Of a stretch of DNA of 64,000 nt, positions 2,911 to 3,447 are shown piece by piece (the first letter of the stretch is position 1; each line of letters starts with the position of its first letter). Below the pieces are notes generated by a model. It saw only the letters and a program-made list of their open reading frames with translations. It was not told the DNA's origin and ran no database searches. The translations under genes and the position numbers were made by a program. The stretch comes from Amphiscolops sp. MND2022 (taxonomy: Eukaryota), in contig OZ076409.1 of the NCBI GenBank assembly GCA_964187785.1, forward strand, positions 65,350,001 through 65,414,000, read 5' to 3'.

Positions 2911-2981
2911 TTCATTTCTCTTCTCTTCGTTGTCATTTTAACTTAAACTGATAGCTCATCTGTAATCATTCATTTCAGCTT

Positions 2982-3419
2982 AGCACGATAACGATCATAG
3001 TATCAATCTCTGCCGTGGGTGAAATATTTTTCAGCACGGTATTGATCATAGTATCAATCTCTGCCGTGGGTAAATAACTTTTCATGAAATCGAGCACGGT
3101 AACGATCTTAGTATCAATCTCTGCCGTGGGTAAATAACTTTTCAAAGTCGTGCACGGTAACGATCACAGTATCAATCTCTGCCGTGGGTAAGTAACTTTT
3201 CAAAGAATCAAGCAAGGTAACGATCATAGTATCAATTTCTGCCGTGGGTAAACAACTTTTCAAAAGCAAGCACGGTAACGATCCTAGTTATCAATCTCTG
3301 CCGTGGGTAAAAATTTTTTTTCACTAAGCACGGTAACGATCTTAGTTATCAATCTCTGCCGTGGGTAAAAAATACTTTTTAGCACGGTAACGATCATAGT
3401 ATCAATCTCTGCCGTGGGT
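2982..3419 (+). repeat. Array of 8 hairpin repeats (39-40 bp, consensus AGCACGGTAACGATCATAGTATCAATCTCTGCCGTGGGT) with 12-21 nt A/T-rich spacers
   Basis: Repeats start at 2982, 3033, 3093, 3151, 3211, 3269, 3327 and 3381; CACGGTA/TGCCGTG forms a stem. Confidence 0.95.
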
Positions 3420-3447
3420 AAAAAACTTTCGAATTTCAGTTCATTGT

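Follow-up and report, generated by a model that had tools for sequence, protein, structure and literature searches.

The window, i.e. the whole 64,000-nucleotide stretch of DNA that was analysed, carries a tandem array of eight units that are predicted to fold as RNA hairpins, within an element classified as an env-carrying Ty3/gypsy retroelement. The structured array appears to be under selection and confined to this element, as indicated by compensatory changes, by the conservation of the core and by the context of 62 of the 64 arrays compared. The tentative reading that we prefer, with a probability of about 0.42, is that the array acts as a multimerised, protein-binding, cis-acting RNA element, which may promote or gate the export and/or the translation of the RNA of downstream genes.

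The array and its host element

The features of the window that are relevant to the array are as follows.

2466..2910, plus strand: accessory ORF A (134-136 aa in other copies); frame broken near the start here
2887..2892, plus strand: AATAAA, putative poly(A) signal, 3' of ORF A
2973..2978, plus strand: TTTCAG acceptor-like site, 5' of the first unit, preceded by a U-rich stretch
2981..3429, plus strand: unit array, eight copies, each with a predicted outer stem of 7 bp, internal loop, inner stem of 4 bp, A-rich tail and spacer
3434..3439, plus strand: TTTCAG acceptor-like site in the interval between the array and ORF B
3448..3666, plus strand: accessory ORF B (72 aa), whose stop codon runs into the start codon of ORF C (TAATG)
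3666..3968, plus strand: accessory ORF C, a paralog of ORF A (100 aa here, 154 aa in other copies)
4360..4674, plus strand: second small hairpin motif, three copies (4360, 4507, 4660), in the AUG-poor stretch ahead of env
4708..7319, plus strand: env-like gene, Monjiviricetes-type fusion glycoprotein (PF24664), fragmented in the window copy
8087..8644, plus strand: TRAF/MATH-domain ORF carried by the element
8633..10817, plus strand: 3' LTR; shares 90-94% identity with the 5' LTR, which lies before the window (about -17560 to -15170)

The eight cores start at positions 2983, 3034, 3094, 3152, 3212, 3270, 3328 and 3382, have a length of 36-37 nt and span 2983-3417. They are separated by AT-rich gaps of 15-24 nt, with a unit period of 51-61. 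A 21-mer search with up to one mismatch returned 8 matches in the array and none in 100 shuffles, and the eight repeat units reported in the preliminary description are thus present at the place given for them. The CACGGTA/TGCCGTG stem proposed there is intact in six of the eight units; the other two, units 1 and 5, each carry a single mismatch in it. The AATAAA ahead of the array and the bracketing TTTCAG sites (2978, 3439) stand where they had been placed, and the AG...GT flanks were also recovered, with AG before 7/8 cores and GT after 8/8. In the layout of the unit, an asymmetric internal loop is conserved, the apical loop on the 4-bp inner stem varies freely, and a short spacer bounded by CU...AG closes the unit 3' of the A-rich tail. 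The periods seen among the units are 51, 58, 60 and 61; a coding reading of the array is ruled out, since the periods of 58 and 61 shift the frame.

The retroelement setting that had been claimed for the array was borne out by the LTRs, the env-like gene and the MATH ORF, along with the gag-pol region (gag and PR-RT-RH-IN), which was read in a related copy of the element. On the basis of the LTRs, gag, the PR-RT-RH-IN order and env, the host of the array is classified as an env-carrying Ty3/gypsy LTR element with the gene order pol, ORF A, array, ORF B, ORF C, env. The LTR contains a TATA box at about 9228, a leader devoid of AUG, and a strong donor (CAG/GTAAGT) at about 9365. The sequence around this donor (9360-9372) reads TTTTCAG/GTAAGT, an acceptor and a donor back to back, which resembles a recursive splice site. 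In two other copies of the element, the LTR pairs are 99.1% and 100% identical across the compared stretch. The window copy has been rearranged: the accessory block of approximately 4 kb, together with the array, is tandemly triplicated, and env has been interrupted by a piece of ORF A (window 1-4910 and 5385-5785; L002, L003). The TRAF/MATH-domain ORF has a relative in the window at 23872-24659.

The accessory proteins, 3-5 per element and 70-170 aa in length, belong to one paralogous family, and their ORFs are joined by TAATG or ATGA overlaps (window 2466-3968; L114:5882-7317; L134:3578-7410; L136:4626-7063); an additional 176-aa ORF occurs in family 3. Accessory protein A is confidently predicted to fold into four strands and three helices (pLDDT 78.5) and gave no match in Pfam, PDB, Atlas or a fold search (best Z 5.0). 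These missing matches prove neither a new fold nor a lack of RNA binding. Another gypsy element of the window lies on the minus strand (29575-41847); 3' of its pol, the opposite strand contains long GC-rich open frames that have no Pfam match. The window also contains a 2.1-kb tandem duplication (50569-54766), 99.95% identical, which may be recent or an assembly artefact.

Predicted fold and conservation of the unit

The pairing was evaluated on 33 distinct units, in which the outer stem of 7-8 bp and the inner stem of 4 bp leave 95% of cells paired, versus 15-48% for slid control pairings. None of 500 shuffles reached the observed cells-paired value and covariation score, while the number of pairs with a double change was matched in 70 of 500. 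The covariation check suggested in the preliminary description yielded compensatory changes, namely C-G to G-C and U-A to C-G, which represent two independent events only, counted against a shuffle control that ignores kinship. One-sided changes produce G-U pairs on the sense strand, and they do so in three helix sets. One unit of the sister family 2 carries an extra stem in place of the apical loop, which suggests that the apical loop is free and that the internal loop and the A-rich tail constitute the conserved surface. The CU...AG closure is kept in the spacers of family 1, the family of the window element, with at least two paired positions in 299 of 359; the AG at the unit start, to which attention had been drawn earlier, can therefore be attributed to pairing with the CU of the spacer. 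The folding z-score of single units ranges from -1.3 to -1.5 on the sense strand and is -2.1 on the antisense strand; for the whole array it is -0.38. No pseudoknot was supported for the motif of families 1 and 2, and Rfam gave no credible match in the window region or in the sister loci. An H/ACA guide RNA would have a pocket 14-16 nt ahead of an ANANNA box, a second hairpin and a terminal ACA; in the array unit, the tail contains AAANAA 16 nt behind the inner stem, without a conserved ACA after it.

The conservation of the core was compared with that of its surroundings at two distances. Between the alpha and beta subfamilies, the 31-nt core is 99.6% identical; the corresponding values are 70% in the region of ORF A, 77% in the flank upstream and 53% (78/146) at the 4-fold sites of env. 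Between families 1 and 2, the core retains 84% identity, with 63% in env and 45% (44/98) at its 4-fold sites. Across 538 units, core positions vary by 1-5%, and the variation is concentrated in three apical-loop bases, one tail base and the spacer. This pattern is that of purifying selection on the stems, the internal loop and the tail, with the apical loop left free, as judged from the aligned sequences.

Distribution in the genome and confinement to one slot

The core 19-mer has 461 exact matches in the genome and the control none. Comparison of unit number between copies, also proposed at the outset, gave 538 units in 64 arrays with 1-20 units each, at 63 loci picked by matches to the array region or to ORF A. 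ORF A upstream and ORF B downstream were found in 62/64 arrays, and the remaining two have one of these ORFs. AATAAA precedes 57/64 arrays at a distance of up to 160 nt, in most cases 95-100 nt. TTTCAG precedes 55/64 arrays by no more than 30 nt, typically standing 3-10 nt before the first unit, and follows 54/64 by no more than 120 nt. As a check on selection bias, the arrays among the 19-mer matches listed were inspected, and 18/18 adjoin an ORF A match. This context and the ORF A check indicate that the array is not a free minisatellite. The core was not found outside these elements among the array and family-2 loci examined, and when stem variants were searched for, the 30 matches examined out of 38 all proved to be mutated copies of family 1 or 2.

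Viral contigs gave no match to either motif or to env. In metagenome contigs, seven relatives of env were detected at 32-61% identity; a comparable array was not found in the five examined, of which only L149, L152 and L153 hold much upstream DNA. For the env relatives P0002, P0003 and P0006, the host genome contains nothing closely similar.

The preliminary description had also pointed to a different repeat of about 40 bp, at 18290-18420, as occupying the equivalent place in a relative. That repeat exists, but it belongs to a separate minisatellite family of approximately 38 nt and is not the equivalent of the array; motif model R1 found nothing there (best E 0.84). The minisatellite forms tandem units of 1.4-1.8 kb on C3 (L156-L166) and has the word ATAACTTTTCA in common with the array spacers.

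Sister families and an exchangeable slot

In family 2, five spaced copies of the motif lie between an A-type ORF and env (L114:7406-8150). The family-2 motif pattern has 408 exact matches genome-wide, and ORF A2 stands upstream in 27/27 further loci. The family-2 unit is a three-helix version of the motif, in which the tail leads into another helix, with a CU/AG closure, and then a third hairpin; both of these helices contain several pair types among 10 distinct arm sets from 49 units. The order AATAAA, U-rich stretch of approximately 80 nt, AG, motif is found in this family, and no GU is present at the position of the family-1 'donor'.

Families 3 and 4 are more distant relatives of the previous two: the env of family 4 is 57-60% identical to those of families 1 and 2, and the accessory ORFs of families 3 and 4 are paralogous. 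In the loci read, 1-4 copies of an unrelated motif lie between the last accessory ORF and env (L134:7446-7720, L136:7113-7540), and in 20/20 further loci this motif also precedes env. It consists of an H-type pseudoknot followed by two hairpins, and among 14 distinct sequences 7 of 23 pairs are changed on both sides, three of them in the pseudoknot helix. Neither of the motif models, R1 and R2, recovers the other motif (best E 0.84 and 1.8), and no AATAAA stands ahead of the motif in the two families-3/4 loci read. A comparable slot thus holds exchangeable folds, two unrelated motifs in four related families, as read from their sequences. The small bulged hairpin ahead of env, a third motif, is present in three copies in family 1 (4360-4674) and in one copy in family 2 (L114:8340-8360); its outer pairs show compensatory changes, and it sits in the AUG-poor stretch before env.

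Depletion of AUG and the proposed role of the array

From the first motif to env, two family-2 copies (L114, L118) contain no AUG in 1008 nt versus 8.2-8.8 expected (0/500 shuffles), and two more contain 1-2; the row of L119 (1483 nt), which extends beyond the env start, is omitted from this test. In family 1, the stretch from ORF C to env contains 1-3 AUG versus 6.5-7.2 expected in four copies, and 7 versus 10.5 expected in a copy with a shortened ORF C. The slot of families 3 and 4 contains 1 AUG versus 2.9-4.7 expected. AUG is not depleted in the spacer between pol and ORF A. In 29 family-2 leaders, there are 27 AUG in total and 14 leaders have none, whereas six related triplets average 6.5-21; in family 1, 34 of 58 arrays are AUG-free before ORF B. 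The copies are related and partly repetitive, which makes this test weaker than the counts suggest. The agreement of AUG depletion across three separate regions suggests that the motif slots are scanned as 5' leaders. The slots, AUG-depleted and 3' of a splice acceptor, therefore likely lie in the leaders of subgenomic mRNAs. This also points to mRNA leaders more than to the packaging array that had been considered earlier, which keeps some probability. The depletion speaks to scanning and not to protein binding, and it is compatible with the rival explanations too.

In the mechanism that we propose, the element would produce subgenomic RNAs by splicing to the acceptor before the array, with either the LTR donor or a host spliced leader (SL), supplied by trans-splicing, as the upstream partner. 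The array would then sit in the 5' leader of these RNAs, where the invariant internal loop and the A-rich tail may form the binding surface and the tandem multimerisation may increase avidity. A host factor or the A/C-type proteins of the element itself are candidate binding partners.

Identities considered for the array

The CRISPR-like appearance noted in the preliminary description is a visual likeness only. The spacers are 22% GC and interrelated, and the five commonest types make up 45% of the 359 spacers readable out of 538 units. Spacers of 15-24 nt with recurrent types are at variance with the unique, foreign-derived spacers of near-constant length in a CRISPR array, and this identity was rejected. 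The only match to a CRISPR direct-repeat family, overlapping the array edge, scored 16 bits (E 3.6; gathering 50).

The same description had suggested spliced-leader or splice-donor cassettes, which is not sustained by the SL gene of the host. In the acoel Symsagittifera roscoffensis, a leader exon has been published and 30% of genes are trans-spliced, according to the part of the report available (PMC9911081). This leader exon has 2378 matches (up to three mismatches) in the host genome, and the host is therefore taken to be an SL trans-splicing acoel. Its SL RNA gene forms a 904-bp tandem repeat linked to 5S rRNA (C1, about 16.23-16.42 Mb and beyond), with an exon that ends in AAATAG before a GTAAGT donor and with an Sm site downstream. 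The longest word common to the SL gene and the array unit is 6 nt, without an unusual duplex, and the Sm-site pattern used has no occurrence in the array. The unit 'donors' agree with 5-6 of 9 consensus positions in 503/538 units, whereas the SL donor agrees with 8 and the LTR donor with 9; in family 2, the GU is missing. A junction of SL and array has no match in the genome, and none of 44 SL-headed dispersed copies read (of 100 listed) enters the subgenomic regions of the elements. These dispersed sequences carry no donor (L130-L133, L197-L236), and the 44 read belong to recurring families, some beside LINE-like ORFs; their sequence suggests retrotransposed trans-spliced RNAs or SL-capped LINEs.

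The small-RNA precursor that had been offered as another possibility is unlikely, and a pre-miRNA cluster was rejected, as stems of 7+4 bp stand against the hairpins of approximately 30 bp that are required. Membership of the NXF1-binding constitutive transport elements (CTE) was rejected as well: AAGACA occurs in 0/538 family-1 units and the two-fold symmetry is absent. In structural terms, the array agrees with a CTE/MTE-like class, being a conserved, structured sense RNA in an LTR element that can be multimerised.

Weighing of the explanations

The reading of the array as a protein-binding element that promotes export or translation has limits of its own, i.e. the weak folding energy, the two double-change events, the missing CTE motif and accessory proteins that resemble no RNA-binding fold. 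Its main rival is an exonuclease-blocking intercistronic element of the xrRNA or Ur type, which we regard as doubtful. Cleavage at AATAAA would produce an uncapped RNA, on which the structures would stall 5'-3' decay until SL trans-splicing at an AG further 3' or direct translation. The position of AATAAA 95-100 nt 5' and of TTTCAG at the array start resembles the spacing of nematode operons, family 2 keeps the order of AATAAA, U-rich stretch, AG and motif, and trans-splicing is available in the host; moreover, xrRNAs are tandem and pseudoknot-dependent, and families 3 and 4 carry a covarying pseudoknot. However, the first acceptor lies upstream of the array, which makes a block behind it unneeded, the motif of families 1 and 2 is without a supported pseudoknot, and the two families-3/4 loci read have no AATAAA before theirs. 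The lack of a genomic SL-array junction (0 matches; 0/44 SL-headed copies) also counts against such a block, as weak evidence. A broader arrangement, which may be entertained as a minority possibility, is that the accessory and env genes run as an operon on the host polyadenylation and SL machinery, with the exchangeable, multimerised folds as exonuclease roadblocks, or as a released multivalent decoy RNA, in the production of subgenomic RNAs. If true, xrRNA-type elements would be seen for the first time in a retroelement, in the form of two new folds that are independent of each other. An unlikely alternative is the regulation of splice-site choice, in which weak decoy donors and structure-embedded acceptors would balance the unspliced genomic RNA and the spliced RNAs for the accessory proteins and env. 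TCAG starts 157/538 family-1 units, most of which then have GT, the pyrimidine tracts of family 2 have their AG in the 3' arm of the downstream helix, the first stem of families 3 and 4 begins at AG, and the LTR donor is strong. The absence of GT in family 2 and the poor donor matches do not agree with this function; the AG is accounted for by CU pairing (299/359 spacers), and the invariant internal loop would be left unexplained.

The two conserved acceptors that bracket the array, its non-coding periods and its multivalence would also suit a non-coding multimer of approximately 460 nt, or small RNAs, released by processing at both acceptors and acting as a decoy for a defence protein or an RNA-binding protein of the host. 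This we consider quite improbable, as the depletion of AUG is unnecessary for a non-coding RNA, Rfam gave no match, and Drosha/Dicer would require stems longer than 7+4 bp. A self-cleaving ribozyme of an undescribed class, to which very little weight is given, would be in line with the compact size, the invariant unpaired nucleotides and the free apical loop, and in families 3 and 4 the loop of the hairpin finds complete pairing with a strand further 3'. An array with as many as 20 active copies would nevertheless destroy the genomic RNA, and described ribozyme classes were rejected, with no match in Rfam and with the hammerhead, twister, pistol and HDV core patterns searched absent from both strands of the window array. 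The Su(Hw) array of the Drosophila gypsy element is the comparison for a function at the DNA level, i.e. an array of transcription-factor sites serving as insulator or internal enhancer. The conserved cores and AT-rich variable spacers would suit it, and the unit tail resembles a forkhead site; however, three helix sets show compensatory changes together with G-U pairs on the sense strand, and this, as well as AUG depletion on that strand, makes this explanation highly unlikely. Spliced-leader-like or splice-donor cassettes can hardly be the answer: the trans-splicing host and the AG...GT flanks of family 1 speak for them, but the true SL gene differs in its strong donor and Sm site, has at most 6 nt in common with the unit, and family 2 is without GT. 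Just as little credence is given to a neutral minisatellite homogenised by slippage, in spite of the copy number of 1-20, the slippage-like periods and the weak folding z-scores, as the conservation of the core far exceeds that of synonymous sites, spaced copies survive in a sister family, and the core was not found outside the elements at the loci examined.

Comparison with known systems

The comparisons below draw on the available parts of the cited papers. The CTEs (MPMV CTE, gamma-CTE) and the array are both stem-loops with a conserved internal loop, located in retroelement RNA and multimerisable (PMC4174252; PMC4330393; PMC7551171). The gamma-CTE is active only as 4-8 tandem copies (PMC4174252), and the CTE carries AAGACA in the internal loop of a two-fold symmetric stem-loop (PMC4330393). 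In contrast, AAGACA occurs only in some units of family 2, at the stem base and not in the loop, and the array is a natural 1-20x multimer that would lie in a leader and not 3' of genes. The MTE of MusD is an export element with a kissing-loop/pseudoknot (PMC3362945), and in SERV-K/MER11 a transport element has been exchanged between lineages (PMC11379458). As in the elements described here, these are structures in LTR retroelements, some with pseudoknots, and unrelated structures replace each other; the likeness is one of organisation, and theirs are single large elements, whereas here, in an invertebrate gypsy element, modules of approximately 50-95 nt are repeated 5' of accessory ORFs or env.

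Tandem arrangement and dependence on a pseudoknot characterise the xrRNAs (PMC8374639), and nematode operons have a median spacing of 129 nt and the Ur intercistronic element (PMC7668243). The array is similar to both in its tandem structured modules, approximately 100 nt behind AATAAA and beside an acceptor, in a trans-splicing host. It differs in that Rfam gives no xrRNA match, the array lies behind the first acceptor and only two TAYYTT matches are present in it. The likeness to SL RNA genes and CRISPR arrays is outward only (stem repeat and spacer, AG/GT flanks).

The Ty3/gypsy elements with env (errantiviruses, broadly defined; PMC13524379) have in common with this element the gag-pol-env LTR organisation, and Cer1, which depends on a spliced CERV product to export its genomic RNA, has accessory ORFs as well (PMC10309623). 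The cluster of paralogous 70-150-aa ORFs with stop-start overlaps, the RNA arrays and the MATH-domain ORF set the present element apart from them. The main text of the env-gypsy survey (PMC13524379) contains none of the terms 'acoel', 'Xenacoelomorpha' and 'RNA structure', and the available part of the Cer1 paper makes no mention of tandem stem-loops. The literature searched, which leaves most subscription papers outside, gave no description of the array motif, which is judged to be a new structured-RNA family of a functional class that is probably already known. Few descriptions exist of the elements that control env-bearing retrotransposons of invertebrates at the post-transcriptional level. 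In the four families compared, at least two uncatalogued folds and a small third hairpin fill probable leader slots, with hundreds of natural variants, which give ready covariation data, and a unit of approximately 50 nt is suited to probing, exonuclease assay and use as bait. The preferred reading of a protein-binding export or translation element would make clear by what means env and several accessory genes of a complex retroelement are expressed when the host is a trans-splicing one, and it would add motifs to the small set of multimerisable RNA export/translation elements.
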